From assembly GCA_963763775.1 (NCBI GenBank), contig CAVXPZ010000004.1:576001-640000 (forward strand): a DNA stretch of 64,000 nucleotides, in the 5' to 3' direction. This DNA comes from an uncultured Chloroflexia bacterium. Lineage in GTDB: Bacteria; Chloroflexota; Limnocylindria; Limnocylindrales; CSP1-4. Both the position numbers and the translations under genes were made by a program. Positions 36,800-59,015 of the stretch are shown one piece after another; the stretch's first letter is position 1, and every line of letters begins with the position of its first letter. Under the pieces are notes generated by a model. The model ran no database searches and had not been told where the DNA came from. It saw nothing but the letters and a program-made list of their open reading frames with translations.

Positions 36800-36837
36800 G
36801 CCCGCCGCACCGGCATGACGCACGCCCAGGCCCGCAC

Positions 36838-37414
36838 CTAGGCGAGGTCGGCGGGCTCGTCGATGTCGCGGAGCGTCCCGCCGTCCGGGTCGTCCTCCCG
36901 CCAGACTTCCTCCGGGATCGCCACGAGCGAGAGCGCCATCGGCAACGCCCGAAGCCGACGTTCCCCCGCCGCGAGCAGGGCCTCGGCGGCGGCCGACGCG
37001 GCGGCGCGGCGCACGGCCAGCGGCAGCGGGCGGAGGTCCCCGCCAGCCTCCAGCAGCGCGGCGTCTGCCTTGGCAAGCCCGTCGACGAGGCGCTGCAGGA
37101 CGGCCGGTGCCATCGATGGCATGTCGCCGCCGACGACGATGACGACATCCGCGTCGGTCGCCGCGAGACCTGCGGCGACCCCGGCCAGCGGGCCTTCGAA
37201 CGGCCTCGAGTCGTGGACGAGCCGGGCGCCGGCCGGGAGGTCCCGATCCACACCCGGCGGCACGACGACGACGATGTCGTCCGCGAGGCCGGTGACCGCA
37301 TCGATCGCGCGCTCGAGCATCGGCCGGCCATCGATCGGCTCGGCCAGCTTGTCGCGGCCGAACCGCGACGACCGGCCGCCCGCGAGGACGATGGCCGCCG
37401 ACCCGGTCGGTCAC
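36838..37414 (-). CDS. mobA: molybdenum cofactor guanylyltransferase (start out of frame)
   Basis: AIVLAGGRSSRFGRDK, GPLAGV, GGDMP, DIDEPADL. GTG at 37414 is in the selB frame. Confidence 0.85.
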
Positions 37415-39229
37415 GGCGGCGCTGACCCGGTCCGGCGCCCTCGGTCCGGGGACGTGCCCGTCGGGGGTCCGGCGGAGGACGCCGCGGCGGTCGAGGTCCT
37501 CGAGGATCGCCATCACGTACTTCCGGCTCGTGCCGGTCGCGTCGCGGTACGCCGCGGGGGTGAGCGGCGCCTGGCGCGCCATCTCGAGCGCCCGATCGGT
37601 GAGGTCGCGGTACGTCGTTCCCGCATAGGCGAGGTCCGGCTCGAGGACCACGATGCGACCGGACCGCTCGAGGGCGCGGACGGCGTCCGGCGGGCAGCCG
37701 CTGGCCCGAGCGGCCTCCGCGAGTCTCGGCGGCGACGGGACGGCCAGGGCGGCCTCCAGCCGGTCCATCGCCGCGAGCAGGCCCGGGTCCGGCGCCGCCG
37801 CGGCGACGCCCGCCGGGCGCAGGCGGTCGCCGTCCCGGACCAGCGTCCCCGCGGTGACGAGGCCGTCGATCACGGCCGTCGCGGCGGTGCCGGCTTCGTC
37901 GCGCGTGCTCGTAGCCGACCGGCGGATCGAACGGACCACCACCGGACGGAGCGAGGCCAGCGTCACGTCGCCCGTGACGTGCTCGGTGGCGGCCTGGGCC
38001 GCCGACGCCTCGACGTCGGGCGCGAGCCGGAGCTGGCGGTCCACCAGGCGCAGGCCGTGGAGCTCCAACGTCGCGGACGCCACCGCGTCGCGATCGCCGC
38101 GCGCCAGGGCGGCCGCCAGGACCTCGACCCTCGCCGACGTCTGGCGACGGCGCGACACGCCGCGAGCCGGCTGCGGATCGAGCACGATCCCGCCGACGAC
38201 CGGGTCTGCGCCGCTCGACCGGCGAAGGACGAACCGGTCGCCCGCAGCCGCGGCGATGGGCTCTGCCAGGCGCAGGATCGCGGCGGCCGAGGCGTCGGCG
38301 AGGTCGATCGCGTCACGGCCACTGCGGCCCACGGCCGCGTCGACGGCTGCCGTCCCGAGGTGGAGCCGGGCGCGCGCCCGGTCGGCCATCGGTCGGGCGA
38401 GCCGCACGAGGAGGCGCGACGTCTCGACGACCGCCGGGTCGGTCGTGAGCACGACGCCGCGGTGCAGGCGCTCGAGCTCGGTGCCCGCGACGTTGAGGGC
38501 CGTCCGCCCCTCCGGGGCGGTGTCGACGGAACCTCCGTGCACCTGGATCTCGCGGATCCGGACGGACCCGTCGTCAGGGACCACCCGAAGCGCCTCGCCC
38601 CCCGACAGCGGTCCGCCTCGGAGCGATCCGGTCACCACCACTCCACGGCCTTTGACGTGGAACACGCGGTCGATCGCCAGTCGGGGCCCGCGGGCGACAC
38701 CAGGCGATCCGCGGCGTTCGACCCGGTCCCGGACGTCGCGCAACGCGAACCGGAGCTCGCCCAGACCCACGCCGGTCACCGATGAAGCCGGGATCACCGG
38801 GGCGCCGGCCAGCGATGAGCCGGCGACGAGCCGCCCGACCTCGGCGACGACCTCGTCCACACGACCGGGGTCGACGGCATCGATCTTGGTGACGACGATG
38901 ATCCCGGGCTCGACCCCGAGCGCGTCGAGGAGCGCGAGGTGCTCCCGGGTCTGCGCCCGGACCCCGTCGTCGGCCGCGACGACCAGGAGCGCGGCGTCGA
39001 TCTCGCCCGCTCCGACGAGCATGTTGCCGACCAGTCGGTCGTGCCCGGGAACGTCGACGAAGTCGAGCTCGGTGCCATCGTCGAAGGCGAGGTGCGCGTA
39101 CCCGACGTCGATCGTCATCCCGCGTCGCCGCTCTTCCGGAAGCCGGTCGGCGTCGATGCCGGTCAGGGCACGCAGGAGGGTCGTCTTGCCGTGGTCGATG
39201 TGCCCGGCCGTGCCGACGACGACGGTCAT
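37415..39229 (-). CDS. selB: selenocysteine-specific elongation factor (3' end ambiguous)
   Basis: GTAGHIDHGKT, DRLPEERRRGMTID, DVPGH, C-terminal TSRKYVMAILEDLDR winged helix. No stop at the expected position. Confidence 0.93.
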
Positions 39230-40596
39230 GCGCGGGCGGCGAGGGCCCGCTCGACCGCACCGGCCAGCGCGGCGTCCTCGTCCGGATCGACGGTCCGCAG
39301 ATCGAGCACGACCCGGTCGTCGACGATGTGCCCGATGACGATCGGCGTTCCGAGCCGGAGGGCGGCCAGGAGCCGTGTCGCGGAGCGGGCGGAGAGGCCC
39401 AGCCCCCAGGACGGCAGTGTCTCGCCGGGCAGCGACCCGCCGCCGATCGTCGAGACACAGGCGATGGCCCCGCAGCGATCCGCCGGCACGGCGAGCCTCG
39501 CCACCATCGCCTCGGCGCGCTCGCGCACCTGCGCCTCCGTGGTGCTGATCATCCGCCAGACCGGGATGTCCGTCGTCGCCCGCCCGGCCCGGTACGACCC
39601 GAGCGTGAGCGCGACCGCGGCCATCGTGACCTTGTCCGGCCGCATGGCCCGGGCGAACGGGTCGCGGCGGATCCTCGTGATGAGGTCGGCGCGACCCACG
39701 ATGAAGCCGGCCTGGGGTCCCCCGACGAGCTTGTCGCCGCTGAACGTCACGATGTCAGCGCCAGCGGCGAGCCGCTCGCTCGGGAGCGGCTCGTGCGCCA
39801 GACCGAATGCCGCCGTGTCGAGGAGCGCGCCGCTGCCCAGGTCGTCGATGACGATCGCCCCGTACCGGTGGGCGATCTCCGCGACCGCCACGGGATCGGG
39901 CGTCTCGGTGAAGCCGGCCATCGTGAAGTTCGACGGGTGGACGCGCAGGACCACCGAGGCGCGCCGCTCGGCGAGCGGCGCCTCGAAGTCACCGGCGCTC
40001 GTCCGATTCGTCGTGCCGACCTCGATGAGCTTCGCGCCCGCCCGGCGGATGATGTCCGGGATCCGAACGCCCCCACCGATCTCGACCAGTTCGCCGCGGG
40101 ACACGACGATCGCGCCGGCACGCCCGGCGAGGCCGACGGCGAGGGCCAACGCGGCCGCGTTGTTGTTGGTGACGATCGCGTCCTCGGCACCGGTCAGGGC
40201 CACGAGGTGGTCCTCCGCGATCCGGGCCCGGGGCCCTCGCCGGCCGGATGTGCGATCGAGCTCAAGGAGCAGATAGTCGGTCGCGATGGCGGCGGCACCG
40301 GCCGCAGCGCCATCGGGCCATGGTGCCCGCCCCAGGTTCGTGTGGATGATCACGCCGGTCGCGTTGATGACGGGTCGGACACCGGCGCTGGCGAAGCCGT
40401 CCAGACGCGACCGGGCATCGTCGGCGAGCTCGGCGATCCCGCGCGGCGCCGCGTGCTCGGCCAGCCGGGCGCGCTCATCGGCGATGACCGCCCGGACGAT
40501 CGCGACCAACGCGGCGTCGTCCGTCGCCGGCGCGTCAGCTCGCACGACGGCCAGCACGCGCTCGACGCTCGGTGGCCGCGGGGGCGTGGCGGTCAC
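39226..40596 (-). CDS. selA: L-seryl-tRNA(Sec) selenium transferase
   Basis: VINATGVIIHTNLGRAP, NNNAAA, SRGELVEIGG, EVGTTNRT, HPSNF, DLGSG, FSGDKLVGGPQAG. Confidence 0.97.
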   Translation of the reverse strand: MTATPPRPPSVERVLAVVRADAPATDDAALVAIVRAVIADERARLAEHAAPRGIAELADDARSRLDGFASAGVRPVINATGVIIHTNLGRAPWPDGAAAGAAAIATDYLLLELDRTSGRRGPRARIAEDHLVALTGAEDAIVTNNNAAALALAVGLAGRAGAIVVSRGELVEIGGGVRIPDIIRRAGAKLIEVGTTNRTSAGDFEAPLAERRASVVLRVHPSNFTMAGFTETPDPVAVAEIAHRYGAIVIDDLGSGALLDTAAFGLAHEPLPSERLAAGADIVTFSGDKLVGGPQAGFIVGRADLITRIRRDPFARAMRPDKVTMAAVALTLGSYRAGRATTDIPVWRMISTTEAQVRERAEAMVARLAVPADRCGAIACVSTIGGGSLPGETLPSWGLGLSARSATRLLAALRLGTPIVIGHIVDDRVVLDLRTVDPDEDAALAGAVERALAARA

Positions 40597-41204
40597 CGGT
40601 GCCCGCCGTCCACGGCCGGGCTCGTCGCGATCATGTCGATGACGTGCCAGTGCTTCGGGCCGGAGACGGCCTCGCCGTCCTCCTCGCGTTCGTCGAACCA
40701 GACCACGTCCAGGCCCGTCAGCAGGTCCGATGCCGCGTCGCGGTCGAGGAACGTCATCGTCGGATCGGTGTGCCAGGTGTCGTGCGGTCCGAACACGTTG
40801 ACCGCCACGAGCCCGTTCGGCCGCAGCGCCGCGAGGATGCTCGCCCAGGTGCGAGCGAAGGCCGTCGGGACCTGGAACGGCAGGCTGAAGCCCGCGTAGA
40901 TCAGGTCCGCCGGCGAGAGGTCCGCCGACTCGAGGGTCGCCGTGGCCAGGCGCAGCCGCGAGGCCGCGTCGGCAGGGACCCGATCGCGGATGATGCGGGC
41001 CGACGCCGGTTCGGCATCGACGGCGAGGACGTCCCAGCCGCGCTCGAGCAGCGCGAGGGTCTCGGTGCCGTCGCCCGCGCCAAGGTCGATCGCGGATCCC
41101 GGCGCCCGATCGCCCCAGACCGCCATCGCCCGGTCGAACAGCGGCCGCGTCGTCCGGCCCACCATCGCGGCGTAGAAGCGGTCCCAGTCCCGTCCGATCG
41201 CCAA
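40593..41204 (-). CDS. class I SAM-dependent methyltransferase (TehB-like)
   Basis: AIDLGAGDG motif I, GWDVLAVD, SLPF, KHWHV. TTG start with AGGAG RBS; GTGA-coupled to selA. Confidence 0.87.
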   Translation of the reverse strand: MAIGRDWDRFYAAMVGRTTRPLFDRAMAVWGDRAPGSAIDLGAGDGTETLALLERGWDVLAVDAEPASARIIRDRVPADAASRLRLATATLESADLSPADLIYAGFSLPFQVPTAFARTWASILAALRPNGLVAVNVFGPHDTWHTDPTMTFLDRDAASDLLTGLDVVWFDEREEDGEAVSGPKHWHVIDMIATSPAVDGGHR

Positions 41205-41225
41205 GGTCGTGCTTCTCCTGTGGGC

Positions 41226-41265
41226 TGGCGGGAGCGCGTGGGAGTCGAACCCACCGCGCCGCGCC
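41226..41265 (-). repeat. att-site copy: 3' 40 nt of tRNA-Sec
   Basis: tggcgggagcgcgtgggagtcgaacccaccgcgccgcgcc, identical to 53693-53732. Confidence 0.95.
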
Positions 41266-41438
41266 CGTGGTCATTGACGTTCGTCGCGCGCCGCGTTGGA
41301 ACCTGACCGAACATACCCGACACAGGCCCGCCGGCCAAGACCCACAACAACGCCGACGACGTCTGCTTCAGCTGGCGCGTTGTCGTCGGCTGAGGCCATC
41401 ATCCGATCGACGACGCGAGACGATGAAGGAGCCACCCG

Positions 41439-42284
41439 ATGGAGACCGTCGCACTGAACAACGGGGTCGAGATGCCGATCCTCGGCTTCGGCGTCTTCCA
41501 GATCCCCGACGACCAGACCGAGCGGGCGGTCAGCGACGCCCTTGCGGCGGGCTACCGGTCGCTCGACACCGCGGCCGCGTACCGGAACGAAGCAGCCGTC
41601 GGACGAGCGGTCGCCAGCAGCGGCATCGCCCGCGAGGACCTGTTCATCACGACCAAGGTGTGGGTCCAGGACGCGGGTGAGGCGCACACCAGGCGGGCGT
41701 TCGACCGGTCCCTGCAGCGGCTCAGCCTGGACTTCGTCGACCTCTACCTGATCCACCAGCCGTTCGGCGACTACTACAGCGAGTGGCGGGCCATGCAGGA
41801 CCTCTACCGAGAGGGCCGCACTCGCGCCATCGGTGTCGCGAACTTCCACATGGACCGACTCGTCGACCTGATCGAGCAGAACGAGATCGTTCCCGCGATC
41901 AACCAGATCGAGACCCATCCGTTCTTCCAGCGAGCCGAGGACCACGAGTCCATGCGAGCTCGTGGGGTGCAGCACGAGGCTTGGGCCCAGTTCGCCGAGG
42001 GTCGCAACGATCTGTTCGCCGACCCGACCTTGAGCTCGATCGGGCAGGCGCACGGCAAGACGGTGGGTCAGGTGGTCCTTCGCTGGCTCGTCCAGCGCGG
42101 CATCGTCGTCATCCCGAAGTCGGTGCGGCCCGACCGGATGCGGGAGAACCTCGATGTCTTCGACTTCGACCTCACCGACGAGGAGATGGGGCGTGTGGCG
42201 ACACTGGACACGGGGTCGACGCTCTTCTTCGACCACCGCGACCCGAACCAGGCGAGCCGGCTCGGCACGATCCGCGTCGACTGA
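41439..42284 (+). CDS. aldo/keto reductase (2,5-DKG reductase-like)
   Basis: [38 protein letters not shown]. Confidence 0.93.
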
Positions 42285-42331
42285 CTCCGGCCTCCGCGAA
42301 AGAGGTTGCCTAGTCGCTCCCGGCCGTGGGT

Positions 42332-42387
42332 TCGTCCGCCCTGGTGACGCCCGCGGAGGAGGCTGCGGGCGTCACCGGGATGGACGA
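42332..42387. terminator. long hairpin between convergent genes
   Basis: TCGTCCGCCCTGGTGACGCCCGCGG ... CTGCGGGCGTCACCGGGATGGACGA. Confidence 0.7.
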
Positions 42388-42392
42388 CAAGG

Positions 42393-43182
42393 TCAACTGA
42401 TCGTGTCCCAGAAGTCCGCGACCACCGCGGCCGTGGCCTCAGGGCGATCCTCGTTCGGACAATGCCCGGCGTCAGGGATGACCGTGACCGGCGCTTCGAG
42501 CTCGCGGGCCATCTGGTCCTGCATCGCCAACGGCCACGCGTCGTCGTTCTCGCCGTAGACGACGTGGACGGGCAACCCCGTGGCGCGCACCTGCTCAACG
42601 ATGGATGGCTCGGTCAGCAGGTGCTGTGCGTGCGTGACGACCGAACGAGGGTCACTCATCGCCCATCGCCGTTTGAGCACCTCGTACCTGGCGCTCTTGC
42701 GAGCCTCCGCGTCGCGACTGGGGTCCCAGGCATCTTGCATCGACTGGGTGGAGAGGACGTCGATGATGTCGGTCAGGTCGGCCAACCCGAACCGGCCTTG
42801 CGGGCCGCTGCAGAAGAGCGTCAGTGACGCCCAGAGGTCGGGCACCATCACCGCGGCCCGCTGCGCGACCAGGCCCCCGAAGGAATGACCGAGCAGGTGC
42901 GGTCGCGCGAGGTCGAACCGTCAGCCAAGGCGATCGCGTCACGCGCCAGCGAGGCGATCGTGTACGCGTCTTCGCGTTGGCTATGTGCCGATTCGTGCTG
43001 ACCTCGGTTGTCGGCGACGACGACTCGATAGCCTCGCGCTGCCAGGAGCGGGCCGACTTCCGCGAAGTCCTCCTTGCTTCCCGTGTAGCCATGGATCAAG
43101 AGGGCGTCGCCGCGGTGCTGCGCGGGTGGTCGTAGAGCTCGACGGCCAACGGCTCCCCCTGGACCACCACGGATCTCGCCAT
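42393..43182 (-). CDS. alpha/beta hydrolase (frameshifts ~42920, ~43100)
   Basis: IHGYTGSKEDF, DNRGQHES, GHSFGG (shifted frame), YGEND, AGHCPN, spread over three frames. Confidence 0.8.
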
Positions 43183-43186
43183 CGGA

Positions 43187-45574
43187 TCAGACGCCCCGGC
43201 CGGTGAGCGCGGCCGGATCGGTGCGCTCGGCCGACGGCTCCGTGCGCACGGAGCCCAGGAGTTCCTTGAGGCGGGCCTCGGGGTCAGGTCCGCCGGCGGG
43301 TGCGGCGAACTCGAGCAGATCGCGGAGGGGCATCGCACTGAAATAGCTGTGGAAGTGCGGATCGAGGTCGTCGGGATCGGTCACAGCCTCCCCGAAGACC
43401 CCGCCGAGGATCGGGGCCAGCGACCGAACCAACGCCAGGGCTGCCGGCCGTCCGGCGGCGTCCCCGAGCCAGTCTTGCAGCGGAGACATGTCGGTCAGCG
43501 TGGACGACACCGGCGCCGACTCGACCACCGTCACGGGCACGACGGCATGGAGCGCGGCAGACGAGGATCCGATCAGGATCTCGAAGTCACCGCCCTCCGT
43601 CACCCAGTCGTGCCGGCGAGGATCCCAGAACGCGAACGCTCGCGGATCAAGGCGCACGTCCACCGCCCGTGTCTCGCCAGGCTCGAGGCGCACCTTGGCA
43701 AATCCACGAAGCTCCTTCTCCGGACGCCGCACGGACGCGTCGACATCGCGCACGTACACCTGCACGACGTCACTCCCTGCACGGCCGCCGGTGTTGGTGA
43801 CATCGACGGTGACGGTGACGGCGTCGACGTCCAGGAAGGTCCTTGCCGATGCGCGCGCCTGGGCATAGCCGAATGTCGTGTACGACAGGCCGTAGCCGAA
43901 CGGGAAGGCCACCGGCAGATCCCGCCCCTCGTACCAGCGATAGCCGATGTACAGCCCCTCGCCATAGCCGACCCGGTCCGCGTCACCCGGGAAGTCGAGG
44001 TACGCGGGGGTGTCCTCCAGCCGAAGCGGGAACGTCTCGGCGAGGCGTCCGGACGGGTTGACGACGCCGAACAGGATGTCCGCGACCGCGCCGCCCGCAG
44101 CCTGGCCCGAATACCACGCCTCGAGGACTGCGGCCGCGCCGTCGATCCACGGTGTCACGGTGACGGCGGAACCATTGAACAGGACCACGACCGTCCGAGG
44201 TTGCGCGCCACAGACGGCACGGATGAGCGTCACGTGATGCGGCGGGAGGTCCAGGTCCACCCGATCGCTGCCTTCCGATTCCTTCGTGACCGGCATCGCC
44301 ACGAAGACGACGGCGATGTCCGAGTCGGTGGCGGCCGCGACCGCGGCGGCCACGAGGTCGGGCCGCTCCATCTCTCCGTCGTCATAGCCTTCGGAGTACG
44401 AGGTCTCGGCGTCGCCGGCAAGCCGACGCAGTTCGTCGATCGGGACGTCGACGTGTGTCGGCGTGATCTGCGAGCTGCCGCCACCCTGGATCCGGGGCTC
44501 CTTGGCCGCTCGTCCGATGACCGCGATCCGCCCGCCACCGGAGAGCGGGAGCACGCCGTCGTTCTTGAGCAGGACCATACCGTCGGCGGCGATCCGCCTC
44601 GCGAGGGCGTGATGCGCGGCCGCGTCGAACGAGCCGCCCTTCGGCGTTGCCGACGCCCGCGAGATCACGCGCAGGACACGCAGCGCCGCGCCGTCGACGA
44701 TCTCCTCGTCGAGGGCGCCGGCATCGACCGCATCGATGACCGAACGCACGCGCCGGGGCCGCGGGCCTGGCATCTCGAGGTCGGTACCGGCCGCCAGGGC
44801 GCTTGGACGATCGTGGACGGCCGCCCAGTCCGAGACCACGAACCCGTCGAACCCCCACTCGGACCGGAGCACGTCCGTCAGGAGACCTCGGTGCTCCGAT
44901 GCATAGACACCGTTGATCCGGTTGTAGGCGCACATGACGGTCCATGGCTTGGCTGTCTTGACAGCGTGCTCGAAGGCCGGCAGGTACACCTCGCGGAGCG
45001 TGCGCTCGTCGACTTCGGCGCTGACCGACATCCGGCGCGTCTCCTGGTTGTTGACGGCCAGATGCTTCAGCGACGCCCCGATCCCGAGCGACTGCACGCC
45101 GTCGATCCATCCGACGGCGAGGCGCCCGGCCAGGAAGGGATCCTCCGAGAAGTATTCGAAGTTCCGACCACAGAGCGGCGACCGCTTCATGTTGACGCCG
45201 GGTCCGAGGACGACGTCGACCTCCAGGGCGATCGCCTCGCGCCCGATCGCCTGGCCCATCTCGCGCACAAGGTCCGGATCCCACGTGGCAGCGGTGCTCG
45301 AGGCCGTCGGGAAGCAGGTCGCGGCGGTCGCGCCGAACGCCATCGACCCCGTGGAATGCGTGCGCCGCACCCCGTGGGGGCCGTCAGCCATCCGCAGCGA
45401 CGGCAGGCCGAGACGGGGCACGGCCGCGGTCGTCCACGCGGAGTCGCCCGTCAGCAGCGTCGCCTTCTCCTCGAGGGTCATCTCGGCGAGATGGCCCCGC
45501 GCGATCGCGTCGACGCTCGCCGAGGCGGACGTCGCGTCGGGTGATCGGTCCCGGGTCTCGCCATCGACCGTCAT
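43187..45574 (-). CDS. GH3 beta-glucosidase
   Basis: ADGPHGVR, GRNFEYFSEDP, KHLAVNNQE, VVSDW nucleophile, FPFGYGLSYT, Fn3-like domain. No signal peptide. Confidence 0.95.
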   Translation of the reverse strand: MTVDGETRDRSPDATSASASVDAIARGHLAEMTLEEKATLLTGDSAWTTAAVPRLGLPSLRMADGPHGVRRTHSTGSMAFGATAATCFPTASSTAATWDPDLVREMGQAIGREAIALEVDVVLGPGVNMKRSPLCGRNFEYFSEDPFLAGRLAVGWIDGVQSLGIGASLKHLAVNNQETRRMSVSAEVDERTLREVYLPAFEHAVKTAKPWTVMCAYNRINGVYASEHRGLLTDVLRSEWGFDGFVVSDWAAVHDRPSALAAGTDLEMPGPRPRRVRSVIDAVDAGALDEEIVDGAALRVLRVISRASATPKGGSFDAAAHHALARRIAADGMVLLKNDGVLPLSGGGRIAVIGRAAKEPRIQGGGSSQITPTHVDVPIDELRRLAGDAETSYSEGYDDGEMERPDLVAAAVAAATDSDIAVVFVAMPVTKESEGSDRVDLDLPPHHVTLIRAVCGAQPRTVVVLFNGSAVTVTPWIDGAAAVLEAWYSGQAAGGAVADILFGVVNPSGRLAETFPLRLEDTPAYLDFPGDADRVGYGEGLYIGYRWYEGRDLPVAFPFGYGLSYTTFGYAQARASARTFLDVDAVTVTVDVTNTGGRAGSDVVQVYVRDVDASVRRPEKELRGFAKVRLEPGETRAVDVRLDPRAFAFWDPRRHDWVTEGGDFEILIGSSSAALHAVVPVTVVESAPVSSTLTDMSPLQDWLGDAAGRPAALALVRSLAPILGGVFGEAVTDPDDLDPHFHSYFSAMPLRDLLEFAAPAGGPDPEARLKELLGSVRTEPSAERTDPAALTGRGV

Positions 45575-48281
45575 GGCGCCACGGTCGAGACGAGGGCCGG
45601 GCGGGTCACCTCGATCGTGTGCCGGCCGGGTGCCAGCACTGACGTCAGCCTGGGGTCTCCCACCAGCCGCCGTCCGTCCACGACCACCTCCGACGAAGGG
45701 CCGGATGGCGGGTCGAACACGCCGGTGGTCCCGAATGGCAGATCGACGACGGCCGAGAACGACTCGCCCGCGACACGCCAGGCGATCGACACCGGGCCCT
45801 GTGGGGCGTCGAGCGAGGCCGTGCAGGCGGTGATCGACTCGTCGGGGCGTGGCGCCACGATGACGCGGCGGTACCCGGGGCTCGAGATATCTGGCGCCAG
45901 ACCCGCGACGGTGCGGTAGATCCAGTCGACGACGGCGCCATAGGCGTAGTGGTTGAAGGACAGCATCTGGCCACCCTCGCCGCCGCCTTCCACGCCAGGC
46001 ACGGGCGCCATGACGCCAGGATGGATGGATCCGTCCGGGCGGATGGCGTCCCAGCGCTCCCAGACCGTCGTCGCTCCGCGAGTGACCTGATACAGCCAGG
46101 ATGGCGCCTCGCGACAGAGGAGCGCGAGATACGCCTCCTCGAGGTGCCCGGTCGCGGCCAGGGCCGGGAGCACCAAGGGCGTCCCGAGGAACCCCGTCGC
46201 AACCCGCCCTTGTTCGGCTTTCACGAGCGCGGCCAGGGTGTCACCGATGCGCTGCCGCTCATCGTCCGGGACCAGCCCGAACTGGATCGCGACGGCGCAG
46301 CCCGTCTGATTCGAGGCCACGTGCTCGTGCCAACGGGCCCACGTCGCCGACCCGACCGCCCGGGCGATGCCCTCATAGCGAGCGGCATCCGCCGGTTCCC
46401 CGATGAGCGAGGCAGCGCGCGCCGTGAGGCGTGCGCTGTGGGCGAAGAAGGCATTGGCCAGGAAGGTGGGATCCGTCCTGGCCTCCCAGGGACGATCGGG
46501 CGGAGCCGTCGGATCCAGCCAGTCGCCGAACTGGAAGCCGTCGGGCAGCAAGCCGTTCGTGCCACACCGACCAAGGAGGGATCCGATCCAACCACGCATG
46601 CTCGGGTACTGGTCGCGCACGACGGTGACATCGCCGTAGGACTCGTAGACGGCCCACGGCACGATCGTGGCCGCGTCCCCCCAGCCCGCTCGCCCGAACC
46701 GCGCCTCGCCTTGCAGCACGACATCCGGGACCACGGAGGGCACCCCCATCACCGGGTCCTGGTCGAACGCCAGATCGCGCAACCAGCTTGCCCAGAACGA
46801 CTGTGCGTCGAACAGGGTGCAGGCGGTCGACGCGAAGGCCTGGGCGTCCCCGGTCCAACCGAGACGCTCGTCCCGTTGCGGGCAATCCGTCGGGACCGAG
46901 ACGAAGTTGTCCCGCTGCGACCAGACGACGTTCTCGTGGAATCGGTTCAGGTCCGCGTCGGAGGACTCGAACGTGCCTCGCCGCGGGGTCGCGCTGCTGA
47001 TCGCCACGTGCGCGGCATCGATGACCTCCGCATCGGTCTCGATCTCCGCGTAGCGAAAGCCATGGAACGTGAACATCGGCTCGAGGACGACAGTCTGGTC
47101 ATCGGCGAGGAGGTAGGTATCGGTCGCCTTGGCCGTTCGGAGGGAGAGAGTGTGCAGCGATCCGTCCGGCTCGAGTACCTCGGCGTGGCGCACCGTGACG
47201 CACTGGTCGCGTCGGCCTCGGACGGTGATCCGCACGTGGCCGGTCATGTTCTGACCCCCATCAGTGCGAAACAGCCCGGGCCGAACCTCGACCGGCGACA
47301 CTGGGATCGAGGCGACGACGCGGACCGGCGGAGCGATGCGAGGCTCGAGGATCCGACTGTCGAACGGCACCTCCGCGGCGTGGGCCCATGACGCGTCGTC
47401 GAACCCCGGCAGCTCCCAGCCGCCCTGCTCCTCACGGAGGTCGATCTCCGCCCCGTCGTACATGTCCGCGGCCCGGATCGCGCCCGTCGACGCTCGCCAT
47501 CGACCGTCCGTCGGGACCGTGAGGGCCCGACCGTCTTCCAGGTCGACTTCGAGTTGGGCGAACAAGGCCACATCGGTGCCGTAGCGAGCCCGCCCGCCGT
47601 CAGGTCCCCATCCGAGGCGACCTCGATACCAGCCGTCGCCCACCACACCCGTGATGACGTTGTCACCGATGCGAAGCAGGTCGGTCACGTCGTACGCCTC
47701 GACCAGGAGACGATCGCGATAGGCGGTCCATCCCGGGGCGAGGATGTCCTCGGAGACGGGGCGACCATTGATGGCCATCGAAAGGACCCCATGCGCGGTC
47801 GCGTAGAGCCGTGCGCGGCGGGGAGGCCCGGGACATCGAATGTCCGTCGCAGCAGTGGCGGCGGTGCCTGCCGAGCTCGGCCGGGGTCGTCGGGGATCGT
47901 GATCCCGGTCGCCGTCCAATCGCTCGACTGGAGCAGCCCCGCCTCGATCCGAAGCGTCGAACTCCAATCGGACCATCCGGTGTCGGTCCGGATCCGGACC
48001 CGGTAGTGGCGGACCTCCCGACTCTCGAGTGGTGCGCCGGGGGCCGCGACCGCGACCTGGTCATCCGAGTCCACGACGCCGGTCGTGGCCAGCCCTTCCT
48101 CGAAGGCGGGGGTCGAGGCGGACTGGACCTCGTACGAGAGCTGCCGGAGGCCCTGGTTCGATGTCGAGACCTGCCAGGTCAAGCGGATGGGATCGGTGCC
48201 GGCGACCAGGACGGACGTCGGGATCTGGCTGACGAGACGCGTGACGACGGCGCTCGGGGGCGTCGTTCGAGTCGAAGTCAC
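45571..48281 (-). CDS. GH78 alpha-L-rhamnosidase (frameshift ~47815)
   Basis: LAPGWTAY, FTFHGFRY, PTDCPQRDERLGWTGD, FGDWLDP, GATTVWERWD, SFNHYAYG. Confidence 0.93.
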
Positions 48282-48312
48282 TGGCGCGGCACCTCGGGCG
48301 AGTGGGAGTGGA

Positions 48313-49130
48313 TCAGCCTTTGACCGCGCCTGCCGTCATGCCCGAGACGATCTGGCGCTGGAAGAAGATGAACATGATCAGCGGTGGGATCGTGATGACG
48401 ACCACGTCCGCGAAGAGCAGGTTCCAGCGAGTAGGAACTGGCTTATGAAGTTGAACAACGTCAGCTGCACGGTCACGTTCTCGTTCCCGGGCAGGAAGTA
48501 GAGCGGGTCGGCGAAGTCGTTGTAGATGGCAACCGACAGACGACGATCACCGTGATGATGGCCGGCCGCAGGAGCGGGAAGATCACGATGGAGAAGAACC
48601 GCAACGGCGACGCGCCATCCATGAGCGCGGCCTCGTCGATCTCACTCGGGATGACCGCCATGAAGGCCACGAAGATCAGGGTCGCGAAGGGCAGCGCGAA
48701 GGCGACCTCGACCATGATCAGCCCGAGGAGCGTCTTGTAGAGACCAAGCCCCTGCAGCAGGAAGATCGTCGGCACGACGGCCGGAGGGATGATGAGCCCC
48801 GCGAGCAAGAGGGAACTGACCAGTGCCGCGACCCGATCGCGCCGTCGCTGCATCACGAAGGCGACCAGCGACGCGAGCAAGACCGTGATCGCGACCGAGC
48901 CGACGGTCAGGATCAGGCTGTTCCACAGCGCCAGGATCATGAGGCCGTTCCGCACGCTCAGGACGGCCCGGATGTTCTCGATCAACTGCAAGTTGCTCGG
49001 CCAAGCGAACTCGAGGGAGACGCCTCGGCCGGGTCTTGGCCGCCGTCAGGACGATGAAGATGAATGGCACGACAAAACGACGATGCCGATCGACGAGCGC
49101 GACGACGTCGACCCAGTAGCGCCGGGCCAC
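48313..49130 (-). CDS. carbohydrate ABC transporter permease (frameshifted)
   Basis: IPSEIDEAALMDGAS EAA loop. Fragments in several frames. Confidence 0.85.
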
Positions 49131-49142
49131 GACGAGCGGCCC

Positions 49143-49984
49143 TCACAGCTCAATCTCCCGCTTGGAAGAACCGCATCAGCGGATAGACGAGGATCGTGAC
49201 GAGAATGAACAGGACCACATTGCCGGCGGTCGACAGGCCATAGAACCCCGCCTGATACTCCTTGTAGATCACCGAGGTGAGCACGTCCGATGGCGAAGCC
49301 GGGACCGCCGTGGGTCATGGTCCAGATCAGGTCGAACGACCGCAGCCCGCCGATAAACGACAGCAGGATGACCGTGAACGTCGCGTTGCGGGCCAGGGGA
49401 ATGATGACGTAGCGGAACTTCACCCAGGTCCCGCCCTCGAGCCGGGCGGCTTCGAAGTACTCCACCGGGATCGACAGGATGCCGGCGATGAAGATCACCG
49501 TCGCGATGCCGACGCCCTTCCAGACGTCGACCAGCGCCACCGAGAGCAGCGCGAGGTCCGGATTGCCCAGCCAGTCCGGGTGCGGGGAGCCCGACGAGCG
49601 CCGAGGGTCGGTGTTGATGAGCCCCACGGACGGCTGCATCAGCGTGGCGAACGTGATCCCGACGGCAACGGTGCTGACGAGCACCGGGAAGAAGATGATG
49701 CGAGCGGAGCCCCGAGCGCGGATCCTGGAGGTGAGCAGCATCGCCAGCGGCAGCCGAGGATGACCTTTGAGCCCGCTCGTGAGCACGGCATAGATGAGCG
49801 TGTTGCGCAGCCCGCCGATGAGCTGGGGTCGCTCCAGGAACTCGCCGAAGTTGTCGAGTCCGATGAACGTCGCATCGAACAGCGTCCAGCGGGTCAGGCT
49901 GAAGTAGAACGCGAGCGCGGTCGGCACGAGGAAGAACACGCCGAACACGAGACCTGCCGGGAAGATAAAACCATGGGGGTACAT
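49143..49984 (-). CDS. carbohydrate ABC transporter permease (frameshifted; start uncertain)
   Basis: FIGLDNF, WKGVG, SIPVEYFEAARLEG, SFDLIWTMTHGGPG. Confidence 0.85.
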
Positions 49985-50118
49985 GGACGTCCGCGGCGCT
50001 CGGTTCGACCTCTGGCGCGCGGGGCGATGCTCGCGGGCGCGTTCGGAGACGTGAACGGCCGGCCGTGACCGGTCGACCGTCCCTCGGTGGACTGGCGCGT
50101 CGCGTCCAGTCCAGGAAC

Positions 50119-51500
50119 TTACCAGCCCGGCAGACCGAGCTGCTTGGCCTGCTTCTCAACATCCTTGTCGTAGGTCGCGCCGTCCGTCGGCGTCATCTGG
50201 CCGGTTCCGACGGCAACGGAGATCTGCTCGAGGGACGGACCCTTCACCGGCGAGAGGAACTCAAGCGCCGGCGTGCGGCGTTGCCGGATCGATGTAGCGG
50301 CGAGGTCCTTCACGGCGGGAAGGACGTTGTCGGGCAGCTTCGCGCCCTTGATGACGTACGGGCCTGGGGGCGGACTTCGCGGCGGTTGCTGCGTCGACGC
50401 CGGCAGTCGGAGGCGATGAACGCCAGGAAATCCTTGGCCTCGGCGAGGTTCTTGCTGTCGTCTTCGGGATGTAGGTCCCGGCGGGCATCCAGATCGTCGC
50501 GCCAGTTCTTGGCGGCATCCGTGCCGGGCAGCGCGAAGAAGCCGATGTCGTTCACCTGGCATCGGGCGAGTTGGTCGCGATGGTCGAGAGCGCAAAGGAC
50601 AGCATCGGGTACTGGGCGCCCTTGCCGTCGGCGAGCAGCTTCAAGCCTTGGTCGAAGTCGTGGTCGCGAAGTCCTTCTGATACCAGCCCTTCTCGAAGCC
50701 CTCCTGCAGATAGCTGAAGCCGGCCATCGCCGCAGGGGTCGTCGGCGTACTTGGCCTTGTTGGCGGTGTAGTCGGCGGCGAAGTTCGGGACGGCCTGCGC
50801 GACGTTGTAGTAGTCGGCGAGCACGAACAGCTGGGAGGTCCAGTCGTCGGCCGTAGGTGGCAATGACCGGCGCGATACCGGCCGCCTTGATCTTGTCGTT
50901 GTTGGCTTCGAACTCAGCCCAGGTCTTGGGCACGCTCAGCCCGTTGCTGCGTAGATCTTCTTGTTGTAGAGGATACCGCCGCCCATCGCCGTGCCGACTC
51001 GGCACGCCGAAGATCTGCCCGTTCTGCGACACGGTCGGGAGGAACGAGTCGACGATGTTGGCGATGAACGGCTCCTTCGGAGGTCGACGAGCGTGTCGGT
51101 CGGGTGCAGGGCCTGGAGCAGCGAGCCGGAGTTGTACCAGAAGATATCCGTCATGTCGCCCGTCGCAAGGCGTCGTCTTGACGAGGTTGTCGCCTTCGGT
51201 GCCGCCCGGCCGGCTCTCGACGTTGATGGTCACGTTGGGATGCATCGCCGTGTAGGCGTCGGCGAGCGCTTTGGCCGAGCTGCTGGTTCGCCTGCGATCG
51301 TCGACCAGGTACTTCAGCGTGACAGCCGCGGCCGATGGCTCGGGCGTCGCGGTCGGTGCGGCCACGGACGCGGCAGCCGTCGCGGCGGCCGACGCGGCCG
51401 CGCTCGGTGACGCATTCCCCCCGCTACTGCTGCAGGCGCTGACGGCCAGCGCCGTCATCGCAGTGAGGACGATCGCTCGCCTCATTCGTGTGAGATCCAT
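50119..51500 (-). CDS. sugar ABC transporter substrate-binding lipoprotein (many frameshifts)
   Basis: Lipobox LAVSAC, RPGGTEGDNLVKT, DIFWYNSGSLL, PKTWAEF, C-terminal AKQLGLPGW. Confidence 0.85.
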
Positions 51501-51620
51501 GGACTTCCTCCTCATTGGCCATCTGCCTCGGTCGGCGCGACCCAGCTCGTCGCGCACGTCCGTCCCCAGGCGCTTCTCAGTTCGTCGTGTGCGGATCGCG
51601 CTGATCCTCCTTCCTCGTCC

Positions 51621-52535
51621 TCAACGGAGTGACGATGACGTCGACGTGGGCGTGTCTCCGTGACCCCGGTCGACTCGGGTGGACCCGGTGGACACGCTCT
51701 CGACCGCCGGATCGGTGGCGGAGGGCACGAGCCAGATCTCGATGCCGCCCGCCTCCGGGGCCGTGACCATGGATGCAGGGGCTGCCCGATCCGAGATGAC
51801 GCCCGTCAGTTCCTCGGTCCGGCAGAAGGTCGCGAAGGCCGTGTGGCCCCACTTGGTGTGGTCGACGATGGCGATGACCTGGCGAGCCGCCTCGACCATC
51901 GACCGTTTGATCTGGGCTTCCTCCTCTGTGGCGTCGGAGAGGCCCGTCTCGAAGGTGAACCCGGCGGCGCCAACGAACGCGGTCTGGACGTTGATCCGGT
52001 CGAAGACGCCCGCGCCGATAGTCCCGACCACCGAGAGGGCCTCCCAGCGGACCCACCCGCCCGGGAGGACGACCGCGATCCCCGGACAGCCGGCCAGCTC
52101 GGAGGCGATCCGCAGGCCGTTCGTCACGACCGTCAGGTGGTTCCAGCTGCCTCGAGCGCGGATCGCGCGGGCGAGGTGGAGCCCGGTCGTACTGGCGTCG
52201 ATCGCGATGCACTCGCCATCGTTGACCCGCGTCGCGGCGGCGGCCCCGATGGCGGCCTTCTCGGTGCGCCGCAGGCGCTCGCGGACGTCGAACGACCCCT
52301 CGGACGGCCGCGCGGTGGAGGTGATGGCGCCGCCATGCGCCCGCGTGACACGTCCGTCGGCCGCGAGGGCGGCGAGGTCCTTGCGGATGGTCTGACGAGA
52401 CACGCCGAACCGGTCGCTCAAGTCGCCGACGCGGACTCGACCGTGCGCATCGACGAGCCGGGCGATAGCCTGCCGGCGCTCGCTCGAGAATGCGTCGGGG
52501 CCGCGTGGATGCTGGCTGGCGAGGGCGTCGGTCAT
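51621..52535 (-). CDS. DeoR/GlpR family transcriptional regulator
   Basis: ERRQAI..LSDRFGVSRQTIRKDL, HGGA, EKAAIG, IDASTT, VVTNGL. Confidence 0.92.
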   Translation of the reverse strand: MTDALASQHPRGPDAFSSERRQAIARLVDAHGRVRVGDLSDRFGVSRQTIRKDLAALAADGRVTRAHGGAITSTARPSEGSFDVRERLRRTEKAAIGAAAATRVNDGECIAIDASTTGLHLARAIRARGSWNHLTVVTNGLRIASELAGCPGIAVVLPGGWVRWEALSVVGTIGAGVFDRINVQTAFVGAAGFTFETGLSDATEEEAQIKRSMVEAARQVIAIVDHTKWGHTAFATFCRTEELTGVISDRAAPASMVTAPEAGGIEIWLVPSATDPAVESVSTGSTRVDRGHGDTPTSTSSSLR

Positions 52536-52732
52536 GCGCGGGACCTCGATGATCGCCGGCGATCCATCGATCGACCTCCATCGCCGAGCCGGCTCATCTC
52601 CGGCCGGTCGTCGTCGCCCGAAGATAGGGATGCGCCCGATATCGAAGTTGGCAATGGTTGTCGGGAGGTTGCACAATCTTGCGGATGTCCGATGGTGTGA
52701 AACGAAGGCGCTCCGAACGCAACCTTTGGCAC

Positions 52733-53647
52733 ATGGAGCCAGGGGATGCGCGTCCCGACGCGTCCTCCCATCCACACCCGCTGATCGAGCCGGGTAGCGT
52801 GGTCGGCCTCTGGCTGGTCGACCATCTGCCGGTGGTCCATCCCCACGACCACGCGTTCTACGAGATGGCGCTCGTGCTCAGCGGGAGCGGGTTCCACGTC
52901 TGCGGGGAGAGCGAGGAGCCGGTCCGGGCCGGCACCGTGGTCTTCGTCCCGCCGGGAGTCGCGCACGGCTACCGAGGGTGCCGCGAGATGCAGGTCTACA
53001 ACTGCTTCTTCCGGGCGGAGCTGGCCGAGTTCGAGCTCCTCTGGGCGGCCCGCGACGACGCGCTTGGGGCCCTGTTCGAACGCAGCGGGACCAAGCGCCT
53101 CCAGGACGACCACGTCGTGATCCAGGTGGACTCCGCGGCCTTCGAGCAATGCATCCGTGAGCTCGACGTGATCCGGTACGAGGATCCAGCCGAGCGGAGC
53201 CACGCGCGCCAGATCGGCCATCTGCTGCTCGCCCTGGATCTGATCGCCCGGCACGGCCGGCGATACGGGACGGCGCCCAGCGAACGGCGGCTCGCGACCC
53301 CGCCCGTCGTCGCGGCCGTCCTCGATGCCTTCGACGGCGACCTTGCCCGGCACTGGACGCTCGCCGACCTGAGCACTGAGGCCTTCGTCGGCTCCTTCCA
53401 TCTCGCCCACGAGTTCAAGCGCTGGATGGGCGTCTCCCCGATGGCGTACCTCGCGCAGTTGCGCGCGAAACGGGCGGGCATCCTACTGGCCGGGACCGAC
53501 GACTCGATCGCCTCGATCGGCCGCGCCGTCGGTTGGCCGGAGCCTGCCGCGTTCTCGCGACAGTTCTCGAAGGCGTTCGGGATCAGCCCACGCGAGTTCC
53601 GACGCCGTCGCGCGGTGCAGCACGCCGATGAGGCCGTCCCGAGCTGA
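52733..53647 (+). CDS. AraC family regulator (RhaS/RhaR-like cupin + HTH)
   Basis: HDHAFYEMALVLSGSGFH cupin and FKRWMGVSP...FSRQFSKAFGISPREFR. Confidence 0.9.
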   Translation: MEPGDARPDASSHPHPLIEPGSVVGLWLVDHLPVVHPHDHAFYEMALVLSGSGFHVCGESEEPVRAGTVVFVPPGVAHGYRGCREMQVYNCFFRAELAEFELLWAARDDALGALFERSGTKRLQDDHVVIQVDSAAFEQCIRELDVIRYEDPAERSHARQIGHLLLALDLIARHGRRYGTAPSERRLATPPVVAAVLDAFDGDLARHWTLADLSTEAFVGSFHLAHEFKRWMGVSPMAYLAQLRAKRAGILLAGTDDSIASIGRAVGWPEPAAFSRQFSKAFGISPREFRRRRAVQHADEAVPS

Positions 53648-53692
53648 CCAGCTGAGCCCGAGTGGAAGACCTCGGTCCGGCGAGGTCCGGCG

Positions 53693-53789
53693 TGGCGGGA
53701 GCGCGTGGGAGTCGAACCCACCGCGCCGCGCCGAGCGCCGCGCCACTGGTTTTGAAGACCAGGGGACCCACCGGGACCCGACCGCTCCC
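53693..53789 (-). tRNA. selC: tRNA-Sec (UCA)
   Basis: 97 nt. GGGAGCG acceptor, CTGGT-CT TCA AA-ACCAG anticodon arm, long variable arm, GTGGG-TTCGACT-CCCAC T arm, encoded G-CCA. Adjacent to selD. Confidence 0.96.
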
Positions 53790-53843
53790 GCCGCCGATGG
53801 TAGCGCGGCCGGGGTCGGCCGCCGTGCCGCGTATCATCGGTCG

Positions 53844-54921
53844 ATGACGACGCTCGAGGCCCTCCCGCCGAACCCGATCCGCCTGACCGACCTCACCGAC
53901 TGCGGCGGCTGTGCCGCGAAACTGGGCGCCGATCTCCTCGCGGATGCGCTCAGCGGTCTCGGCGCGGAAGCGGCCGCGGACCCGGACGCGGCCCTGATCG
54001 CGGGGCTGAACCCGCCGGACGACGCCGCCGCCTACCGCGTCTCCGACGACCTCGCGATCATCGGCACGCTGGACTTCTTCCCACCCCTGGTCGACGACCC
54101 GCGGACGTTCGGCGAGATCGCCGCGGCCAATGCCTTGTCCGACGTCTTCGCGATGGGTGGCCGCGTGCTGTTCGCCCTCTCGATCGCGGCGTTCCCGGAG
54201 GAGCTACCGCGGGACGTGCTGGCGGAGATCTTCGGCGGGGCGTCCTCGAAGGTCCGCGAGGCCGGCGGGACGCTGGCCGGTGGCCACACGATCCGCGACC
54301 CGGAGCCCAAGTACGGGCTCGCGGTCGTCGGGGCGGCCCACCCGGATCGACTCCTCCGCAAGGGCGGCGCTCGGCCCGGCGACCAGCTCATCCTGACCAA
54401 GCGGCTCGGGACGGGCGTGCTCGTCTCGGGATCGCGTCAGGGCAAGACGCGGTCGGCGGATCTCGACGGCGCCATCGACCAGATGCGGACGCTCAACCGC
54501 GCCGCGTCCGAGGTCCTCGTGGCCGCGGGCATCGCGGCGGCAACGGACGTCACCGGGTTCGGGCTGCTCGGCCATGGGCTGGAGATGGCCCGAGGCGCGG
54601 GCGTCCGGTTCGTCTTCGAGGCTTCGGCCCTTCCGGCGCTGGACGGGGCGCTCGACGTCGCCGCGGCCGGCGTCGAGACCGGCGGGGCCGCCCACAACCG
54701 GCGGTTCGTGCTGCCGGCGCTGACGGTCGGGCCGGGCGTCCCGGCAGAGCATCGTCACGCTGGCGCACGACCCGCAGACCTCGGGCGGCCTGCTGGCGGC
54801 GATCGCGCCGGAGCGGCTCGCCGCCGTCGAGGCGGACCTCGACGCCCGCGGGGTCAGCCACTGGCGGATCGGGCACGTCGAAGCCGGTGACCCGGGCGTG
54901 GCACTCGTCCAGGCGGCCTGA
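53844..54921 (+). CDS. selD: selenide, water dikinase (Cys form; frameshift ~54750)
   Basis: DCGGCAAK, PDDAAAY, LDFFPP, AANALSDVFAMGG, GGHT, TDVTGFGLLGH. DPQTSGGLL is in the shifted frame. Confidence 0.95.
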
Positions 54922-57101: not shown

Positions 57102-59015
57102 GTGGCGAAACCCTACGTTCGACTGACCCAGCCCCTCGTCCGCGACACGAAGGGCGGCGAGTTGCGTCCCGCGACCTGGGACGAAGCGCTCGCTCGGACC
57201 GTCGCCGGGTTCGAGGCCGCGAAGGCGGCCCACGGCCCGACGACATTCGGCACCTTCAGCTGCTCGAAGGCGACCAACGAGGTCAACTTCGCGGCACAGA
57301 AGTTCAGCCGAACGGTCCTGGGCAGTAACAACATCGACAGCTGCAACCGGACCTGACACGCCCCGAGCGTCGCCGGTCTGGCGACCGTCTTCGGTGCCGG
57401 TGGCGGCACAAGTTCATATCGTGAGGTCGAGGACACCGATCTGATCGTCCTCTGGGGCAGCAATGCCCGCGAGACGCATCCGATCTTCTTCCACCACGTG
57501 CTGCGCGGCATCAACAACGGTGCCCGCCTCTACGCGGTCGACCCACGGCGCACGTCGTCCGCCGAATGGGCCGATGGATGGCTCGGGCTGGACGTCGGCT
57601 CGGATATCGCGCTCGCCAACGCGATCGGGCGCGAGATCATCGCGGCCGGATTGGAGAACCGCGAGTTCATCGACCGTGCGACCGTCGACTTCGAGGCGTA
57701 CAAAGCCAAGGTCGAGTCCTACACGCTCGAGTACGCCGAGCGCGAGACCGGCGTCCCCGCCGAGTCGATCCGCGAGCTCGCGCATGCCTTCGCGACCGCG
57801 CCGCGGGCCATGATCTGCTGGACGCTCGGGATCACCGAGCACCACAACGCCGTCGACAACGTCCTCGCGCTCATCTCGCTCGTCCTGCTGACCGGCCACG
57901 TCGGCCGCTACGGGAGCGGCGTCAACCCACTCCGCGGCCAGAACAACGTCCAGGGCGGCGGCGACATGGGCGCCCTCCCCGACCGGCTGCCCGGCTTCCA
58001 GCACGTGGAGAACGACGAGCTGCGGGCCAAGTTCGATGCCGAGTGGGGCGTCCCGGTCCCGCCGCAGCGCGGCTGGCATCTCTCGGGCATGTTCGATGCG
58101 ATGGAGCGCGGCGATCTGACGGCCGTGTACTGCATCGGCGAGAACCCCGTCCAGTCCGAGGCCGACCAGAAGCGCGCCATCGCCCTCCTCGAAGGCCTCG
58201 ACTTCCTCGTGGTCCAGGACCTGTTCCTCACCAAGACGGCAGCCCTGGCCGACGTGGTCCTGCCCGCGACGGCGGCCTGGGCCGAGAGCGACGGCACGGT
58301 CACGAACTCCGAGCGGCGAGTCCAGCGCGTGCGGGCCGCCGTGGCACCGCCCGAGGGCGCGCGTGACGATCTCGCGATCGTCTTCGACCTCGCCAACCGG
58401 ATGGGCGCGGCCTGGGGCGACGCGGACCCCGAGAAGGTGTGGGACGAGGTCCGGCGGCTGTCCCCGGTCCATGCCGGGATGAGCTACGAGCGCCTCGAGC
58501 GCGAGGGCGGGCTCCAGTGGCCGTGCTACGACCTCGACCATCCGGGCGAGATGTTCCTGCACAGCCGCCTTTGGGAGGACCCGGTGCCCGGCAACCGCGT
58601 GCCGTTCGTCCCGGTCGACCACGATCCGCCGGTCGACCGCCTCGACGCGGACTTCCCGATCCGCCTGACGACCGGTCGCCGGCTCGACTCGTACAACACC
58701 GGCGTCCAGACGGCGGGCTACACGTCGCCGCTGCGACGCGGCGAGTCGCTGGACATCTCGCCGGAGGATGCCGCGCGGATCGGGCTCGTCGACGGCGAGG
58801 TGGTCCGGGTCGTGTCGCGACGTGGCCAGGTCGAGGTGGGCATCCGGATCGACGAGTCGCTGCGTCCGGGGCTGACCTTCATGACGATGCATTTCCAGGA
58901 CGAGGTCGCGGTCAACCTCCTGACGATCGACGCCACGGACCCGAAGTCGGGCACGGCCGAGTTCAAGGCCACGGCCATCCGCATCGAGAAGCTCGCGACG
59001 CCGATCCCCGCCTGA
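57102..59015 (+). CDS. selenocysteine-containing FdhF-like molybdopterin oxidoreductase (UGA=Sec at 57354-57356)
   Basis: ORFs 57102..57356 and 57498..59015 are in one frame. NNIDSCNRT-U-HAPSVAGL matches E. coli FdhF NNVDCCARV-U-HGPSVAGL; LRGQNNVQG and ADVVLPA..ESDGTVTNSERRVQ are present. Confidence 0.92.
57369..57385 (+). promoter_or_regulatory. bacterial SECIS element
   Basis: GTCGCC-GGTCT-GGCGAC hairpin 12 nt after the UGA, at the same position and with the same GGTCT loop as the E. coli fdhF SECIS. Confidence 0.85.

Follow-up and report, generated by a model that had tools for sequence, protein, structure and literature searches.

A sugar-gene island at the tRNA-Sec gene of an uncultured Limnocylindrales bacterium and its probable origin as a decayed tRNA island

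The 64,000-nucleotide stretch analyzed here (the window) belongs to the 3.3-Mb genome of an uncultured soil-type Chloroflexia bacterium of the order Limnocylindrales, which is assembled in 4 contigs and designated G000. The window contains selC, the gene of tRNA-Sec with the anticodon TCA, and an island of putative sugar-utilization genes that separates selC from a methyltransferase (MTase) gene followed by selA, selB, and mobA. The 3′ 40 nt of selC (positions 58–97 of the tRNA predicted by ARAGORN) recur in front of the MTase gene with all 40 of 40 bases identical. No other exact direct repeat in the window exceeds 20 nt, and the whole genome contains no copy beyond the two. The cargo between them is 12,427 bp long, or 12,467 bp with one copy included, and is single-copy in the genome. 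Its GC content is 68.2%, compared with 71.3 ± 1.4% for the genome (264 windows of equal size, 8 of which are about as low).

All 106 six-frame stop-to-stop frames of at least 75 amino acids in positions 41000–54000 were scanned with Pfam. Nine cargo genes were recognized, encoding an aldo-keto reductase, an alpha/beta hydrolase, glycoside hydrolases (GHs) of families 3 and 78, two ATP-binding cassette (ABC) permeases, a solute-binding protein, and regulators of the DeoR and AraC families (Table 1). No recombinase, transposase, or relaxase was found among these frames. The first-pass annotation, which was made from the sequence alone, had described the exact repeat as the tRNA 3′ end, an interior free of integrase, transposase, and relaxase genes, and an AraC stop codon 45 nt from the CCA end, and all three descriptions hold. 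The identity block also begins in the loop of the long variable arm as described, position 58 being the last base of the loop. Removal of one repeat copy and the interior gives the predicted order selC-MTase-selA-selB-mobA, in which selA and selB score over the NCBIfam cut-offs and MobA scores below.

Table 1. Coordinates of the features at the selC locus in the window
Feature	Position	Strand	Basis and remarks
mobA-like nucleoside triphosphate (NTP) transferase	36838–37320	minus	MobA model below cut-off; 5′ part in a different frame
selB	37400–39229 (limit approximate)	minus	TIGR00475 above cut-off; 3′ end frameshifted
selA	39226–40596	minus	TIGR00474 above cut-off
S-adenosylmethionine (SAM)-dependent methyltransferase (MTase)	40593–41204	minus	outside the repeat; stop overlaps selA start
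Displaced selC 3′ fragment, tRNA positions 58–97	41226–41265	minus	40/40 identity with 53693–53732
Likely decayed copy of tRNA positions 33–45 (anticodon loop and 3′ stem strand)	41266–41279	minus	alignment
Putative outward promoter	41310–41338	minus	read by eye; −35-like 41338–41333, 17-nt spacer, TAnnnT −10-like 41315–41310
Aldo-keto reductase, DkgA-like (below cut-off)	41439–42284	plus	Pfam, NCBIfam
Alpha/beta hydrolase	42393–43182	minus	Pfam; over two frames
GH3 glycoside hydrolase	43187–45574	minus	Pfam
GH78 alpha-L-rhamnosidase family	45571–48335	minus	Pfam; N-terminal Ig domain in a different frame
Two ABC sugar permeases	48381–49984 (approximate)	minus	Pfam; frameshifted
ABC solute-binding protein	50122–51557 (approximate)	minus	Pfam; several frames
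DeoR-family regulator	51621–52535 (start approximate)	minus	Pfam
AraC-family regulator	52733–53647 (start approximate)	plus	Pfam; converges on selC; 45 nt between stop and CCA
Intact selC, tRNA-SeC(TCA)	53693–53789	minus	ARAGORN; 3′ 40 nt (53693–53732) equal to the proximal repeat copy
selD	53844–54890	plus	TIGR00476 above cut-off; divergent (head-to-head) upstream of selC; 3′ end frameshifted

Relatives show the site without the island. Among 60 loci of the family that hold both genes, a sample chosen partly for double matches and without islands split across contigs, selA lies less than 300 nt behind selC in 53, mostly with a ribosome-binding site right after the CCA. (Family-wide tallies include the unpublished genomes G140, G409, and G196, on which no claim depends.) The empty sites of the same genus lack the MTase gene (0 of 9 congeners), and the intact order selC-MTase-selA-selB-mobA is found in G078 and G181 of other genera, with the MTase gene directly behind selC. 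The comparison of selC loci that had been proposed as a check thus yields empty sites, the predicted order, and, in G503 and G520, a different cargo. Also borne out is the suggestion of a real insertion at selC that lacks an integrase, most simply through integrase deletion.

The same cassette occurs elsewhere. In G020, the AraC-DeoR-ABC-GH78 genes lie between selC and selA with 83% identity over 8.3 kb, on two contigs that overlap in AraC; the selC fragment there starts at position 33 and selA follows it directly. In G431, from another genus, the cassette includes GH3, is 84% identical over 10.5 kb, and stands just behind a tRNA-Cys fragment. The aldo-keto reductase gene was not found in the retrieved cassette loci of G020, G431, and G366. 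Identity to the G020 and G431 copies at fourfold sites is 62–72% for AraC, DeoR, GH78, GH3, and one permease, compared with 46–57% for genes of the sel region and 53–68% for four core genes. In the selA tree, strong support unites G020 with G353 and G031 on one side and G000 with G015 and G007 on the other, so that G000 and G020 are not sisters; the selB tree likewise groups G020 with G353 and G031, and the placement of G000 versus G020 is unresolved in the selD tree. The excess identity of the cassette in hosts that are not sisters indicates that the cassette spread horizontally, long ago. A separate observation concerns the end of contig C5 of G020 (L033, 11830–12396), where a second AraC allele resembling that of G366 is followed by a 3′ fragment of tRNA-Gln(CTG). 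This is probably a chimeric contig end, though it hints that the cassette or its AraC gene also resides in a tRNA-Gln island.

The positions at which the selC fragments start should be noted, as they bear on the crossover site. Five of the nine informative fragments in the family start at the anticodon loop (G020, contig C9 of G012, G205, G298, and G520), two at position 58 (G000 and G503), and two at the T arm (G216 and G446). This count omits G219, G279, G395, and G448, in which the two matches seemed to stem from distinct sel loci or from the ends of contigs. It also omits G124, which is truncated where its contig ends, and the full-length degenerate copy of G491. A pattern search that demanded a start at the anticodon loop gave 12 matches and yields no frequency. 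Locus L083 carries a fragment close to those of the family. For comparison, the Islander collection distinguishes an anticodon-loop (A) subsite from a T-loop or junction (J) subsite, with 2,083 A and 1,836 J islands (PMC4383910).

The first-pass annotation had raised the possibility of a crossover within the variable arm, and the two fragments starting at 58 do not sustain it. G503 and G520 share a 6.2-kb LacI-ABC island (87% identity) and common downstream DNA. The fragment of G520 is an exact copy of positions 33–97 (65/65), and that of G503 starts at 58. The 57-nt spacer of G503 can be aligned to the initial 65 nt of the longer G520 spacer, after which it jumps to the block; none of 2,000 shuffles reaches the alignment score. 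This alignment indicates that about 95 nt were deleted in G503 and that its boundary at 58 is the product of this deletion. A candidate attP (phage attachment site) arm common to the upstream sequences of G000 and G503 was dropped in view of the same spacer alignment. A 14-nt stretch directly upstream of the 40-bp block in the window aligns with tRNA positions 33–45 once one 12-nt tandem unit of the variable arm is removed, so that the alignment would probably extend the selC fragment to 41279. In post hoc tests, a score at least as high was obtained with 91 of 20,000 random 20-mers of the genome, and the score of a profile built from four other selC fragments was reached by 19 of 50,000 random 35-mers. 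Alignments by MAFFT and global alignment placed gaps badly at the junctions and were not counted as evidence. Judged from G503 versus G520 and from the 33–45 trace in the window, the boundary at position 58 thus appears to have arisen through a later deletion at what was originally an anticodon-loop site. More generally, if the arm of a tRNA contains a tandem repeat, the point at which exact identity begins can give a false impression of the crossover site, as the comparison of G503 with G520 shows.

The fragments of G000 and G503 are each identical to their own selC at 40 of 40 positions. In the G020 fragment, the 5′ part shares alleles with another clade at positions 43 and 51, and the 3′ part equals the host gene. 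Gene conversion, selection on the selA leader, or integrase-free recombination inside the tRNA gene could each explain the exact repeats and the mosaic. The fragments of G000, G020, G012 (contig C9), G298, and G205 differ from their own intact genes where the anticodon loop ends, at position 39 or 40, and that of G520 does not; the change may represent attP-derived sequence or may have locked the islands in place.

Taken as a whole, the locus is a true genomic island in selC. Most likely it descends from an element that entered at the anticodon loop by means of a tyrosine integrase and has since decayed, the integrase itself having been lost, likely by deletion. We give this reading a probability of roughly 70%. 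The observations under it are the intact tRNA gene, the displaced 3′ fragment, the nine cargo genes, the lack of a recombinase, the empty sites, and the presence of the same cassette elsewhere. The following course of events is envisaged. An integrase-bearing element would have recombined at the anticodon loop, leaving a fragment of positions 33–97 at the far end, and the integrase end would later have been deleted up to AraC. As the fragment decayed, its variable arm would have shed one of the 12-nt repeat units, which would make the exact identity seem to start at 58, and the 3′ 40 nt may have been kept identical through gene conversion with selC or through selection. A putative promoter at the far end would drive MTase-selA-selB-mobA, so that selenoprotein synthesis likely continues with the island in place. 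For the cargo itself, the predicted role is the uptake and cleavage of glycosides that contain rhamnose and glucose.

That the required type of element exists is indicated by locus L087 of an unrelated organism, in which an integrase matching PF00589 lies directly behind an anticodon-loop selC fragment. Within G000, six PF00589 matches were found, all on contig C1, corresponding to a pair of genes that we infer to be XerC/XerD-like from their presence across the genus and to two genes in a low-GC block; PF07508 gave zero matches in this genome. Non-Xer tyrosine recombinases are found in most genomes of the genus (45 genomes), at sites other than selC. The low-GC block should be described in its own right: it extends from about 1559000 to the end of C1, its GC content falls to 0.52–0.60, both non-Xer tyrosine recombinases of G000 lie in it, and it is either a foreign block or contamination of the bin.

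Several observations weigh against an anticodon-loop insertion followed by decay. No PF00589 match is present in any of the 8 complete selC inserts (G000, G020, G012 contig C9, G298, G503, G520, G097, and G353, the genomes being searched whole), and the integrase of L087 has no match in 401 genomes of the family at an E value of 1e-25, so that we infer the original integrase and do not see it. Pfam searches of the GC3-filtered frames of the selC inserts gave metabolic and regulatory cargo only. The 33–45 trace was tested only after it had been noticed, and the five changes in the window fragment all lie in its 5′ part. Several fragments are closer to their genes than would be expected under neutral decay; the exactness of the G520 fragment (65/65) has about a 1% chance at 6.5% divergence. 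With respect to the cassette, no second fragment was found behind the copy in G431, the copy in G366 lies at a contig start and has no tRNA gene beside AraC, and the second, frameshifted permease is only 51–54% identical at fourfold sites and shows no excess. The junctions between selC and AraC, moreover, differ between G000 and G020, and therefore a single shared insertion is not proven.

Part of this evidence can be read in another way. After an ancient integrase event, the cassette could have spread without integrase, linear DNA carrying selC, cargo, and fragment being taken up and joined by two RecA crossovers inside the near-invariant tRNA gene. This account is compatible with the decayed-island reading, though in itself we regard it as unlikely. 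It predicts a fragment whose 3′ part is the recipient's own and whose 5′ part is old or foreign, and the G020 fragment, with its foreign-clade alleles and host-like end, is such a mosaic. The absence of integrase from all 8 complete inserts, the occurrence of the cassette in non-sister lineages, the 97–100% identity of tRNA-Sec over much of the genus versus 68–78% for selA and selB, and the presence of ComEC (PF03772) in 5 of 5 genomes searched all agree with it. However, the fragments of G298 and G205 carry the rare alleles of their hosts throughout, as plain integration followed by decay predicts, and gene conversion yields the same mosaic pattern. ComEC is also found in 10 of 14 control genomes and is thus no proof of competence, crossovers within 40–50 bp are inefficient, and, with about 30% of fourfold sites differing between the cassette copies, the transfer was not recent. 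The further proposal, that selC in the family serves as an integrase-free cassette socket, seems quite doubtful to us. Under this proposal, cargo blocks bordered by the tRNA gene and its fragment would pass between lineages through natural transformation, the two crossovers would both fall within the tRNA gene, and an outward promoter on each block would keep selA-selB on. If an integrase-free route were real, metabolic cassettes could cross species boundaries by tRNA homology alone and would go unnoticed by island finders for which an integrase is obligatory.

Trans-mobilization, suggested in the first-pass annotation, found no backing, since no cognate integrase was detected in the genome itself, in the selC inserts, or, for the L087 integrase, in the 401 family genomes. 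That the cassette is still actively excised and moved by the integrase of another element, in cis or in trans, is improbable. The exact 40-bp repeat, the tandem arrays at selC in G503 and G520, and the common non-Xer recombinases of the genus would suit such mobility, and co-transfer of cis-mobilizable elements (CIMEs) with integrative and conjugative elements (ICEs) is described (PMC5704250). Contrarily, the anticodon-loop part that such an integrase would need has decayed in the window, both non-Xer recombinases of G000 reside in the low-GC block at the end of C1, the island contains no relaxase or replication gene, and no viral contig matches the selC 3′ pattern. A new integrase subsite with its crossover in the variable arm is very improbable and largely refuted. 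Identity does start at 58 in two genomes with unrelated cargo (G000 and G503), and a literature search found no paper that combines variable arm, attB (the bacterial attachment site), integrase, tRNA, and crossover. Against it stand the G503 boundary, which was produced by deletion at the anticodon-loop site that G520 retains, the decayed trace in the window, and the 10-nt tandem repeat of the arm, which makes 58 the expected end point of a slip. The crossover spacer of integrases is usually 7 bp, and a crossover centered on the arm loop would be expected to start the identity near 54, not 58. The least credible account, which we consider extremely improbable, is an assembly artifact in which the repeat joined unrelated DNA. 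The assembly does contain many frameshifts, 11 public runs hold at most 10% of the sampled words, and four runs gave short pieces, none across a junction. However, G020, an independent genome, carries this cassette in the same place, between selC and selA, the island is single-copy, and an assembly from long reads, as suggested by the 4 contigs and the indels, would not be misled by a repeat of only 40 bp.

Between positions 36800 and 55000, frameshifts occur in selB, selD, the ABC genes, GH78, and the hydrolase gene. The breaks outside the island are similar to those within it, which suggests sequencing indels rather than decay.

The effect of the island on the selenocysteine operon deserves consideration. 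The putative promoter in Table 1 points through the fragment into MTase-selA-selB-mobA. It matches the consensus at 8 of 12 positions, below the threshold of the promoter and terminator scanner, which reported nothing at 40900–42500. Of the 8 fragments examined, 7 have a TAnnnT motif in the roughly 100 nt that precede the block (6 of 7 if G503 and G520 are counted once; the G520 motif is at 104 nt), compared with 8% of 687 control windows of 75 nt upstream of genes, a contrast flattered by the operon-internal genes among the controls. The formate dehydrogenase alpha gene keeps an in-frame TGA at 57354–57356, the usual selenocysteine position. Given this codon, G000 likely needs selA and selB, and the island probably does not break selenocysteine synthesis. 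The first-pass annotation had proposed that excision would restore the sel operon. The part concerning the empty order stands, as this order exists in relatives, but excision is likely unnecessary, because selC is intact, an outward promoter-like motif is present, and the in-frame TGA is kept. In this family, selC is a busy insertion site although it stands directly before selA-selB, and the inserts seem to bring an outward promoter.

In enterobacteria, selC is likewise an insertion hotspot, occupied by the locus of enterocyte effacement (LEE), pathogenicity island I (PAI I), and phiR73. In those islands an integrase, intact or as a remnant, is usually retained along with short 3′-end repeats, and enterobacterial selC is not known to lie directly upstream of selA.

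Compared with described classes, the selC island is an ordinary decayed tRNA island. As in Islander islands (PMC4383910), an intact tRNA gene and a 3′ fragment in the same orientation, the latter downstream, bracket a segment within the 2–200 kb range, and empty sites exist (here in 53 of 60 family loci). Five of the nine informative family fragments start at the anticodon loop, corresponding to the A subsite, of which the window probably keeps a decayed trace. Islander demands an integrase and there is none here, and exact identity begins at 58 after decay, so that the island acts like a remnant of an Islander-type island though it is not one strictly. Integrase-less elements that retain att sites are a named class, the CIMEs (PMC5704250). 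The selC island resembles them in the lack of integration and transfer genes (frames of at least 75 amino acids) and in tandem accretion at one site, seen at selC in the relatives G503 and G520. Its putative att sites would both be at least partly kept, the 3′ 40 nt of the distal one being exact and the 5′ part decayed. No parent ICE or integrative and mobilizable element (IME) was found for the selC island. An IME has its own recombinase and a relaxase or oriT, and both recombinase and relaxase are absent here. The Prochlorococcus islands derived from tycheposons (bioRxiv 10.1101/2020.12.28.424599) also carry nutrient-use cargo beside tRNA genes with partial tRNA copies, are mostly without an active element, and consist of tandem units divided by partial tRNAs that mark older events. 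The tycheposons themselves have an integrase gene, often together with replication genes; the selC island has neither, and the likeness is one of description only. A proposed class of variable-arm integration would need a native start in the variable arm and no anticodon-loop ancestry, and the locus probably has such an ancestry. Literature searches for a variable-arm integration site or for selC islands at the anticodon loop, in which subscription papers were mostly outside the search, and for islands of this lineage gave nothing relevant, and PMC9897764 and PMC11389934 contributed no specific point.

Other tRNA-associated arrays were also observed. On contig C1 of G000 (1522718–1534884, L114), three copies of the 5′ part of tRNA-Gly(CCC) lie upstream of the gene. 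Two of them cover positions 1–40 and end in the anticodon loop, and the third is longer and degenerate; no PF00589 match lies among the copies, and the arrangement looks like a tandem array of 5′-fragment islands. In G431 (L057 and L035), a tandem array at tRNA-Gln(CTG) has two 3′ fragments, a 2.8-kb insert is present at tRNA-Cys, and a tRNA-Val fragment has a weak integrase piece upstream. In G097 (L046, 10872–13609), selA is preceded by two complete tRNA-Sec genes separated by 2.6 kb, with no Pfam match in the frames scanned between them. Contig C9 of G012 (L030–L031) has a second, divergent sel locus with an 18.7-kb island that contains genes for a tripartite ATP-independent periplasmic (TRAP) transporter and dehydroquinate genes. 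This locus falls outside the genus group in the selA and selB trees and may be due to contamination or transfer.

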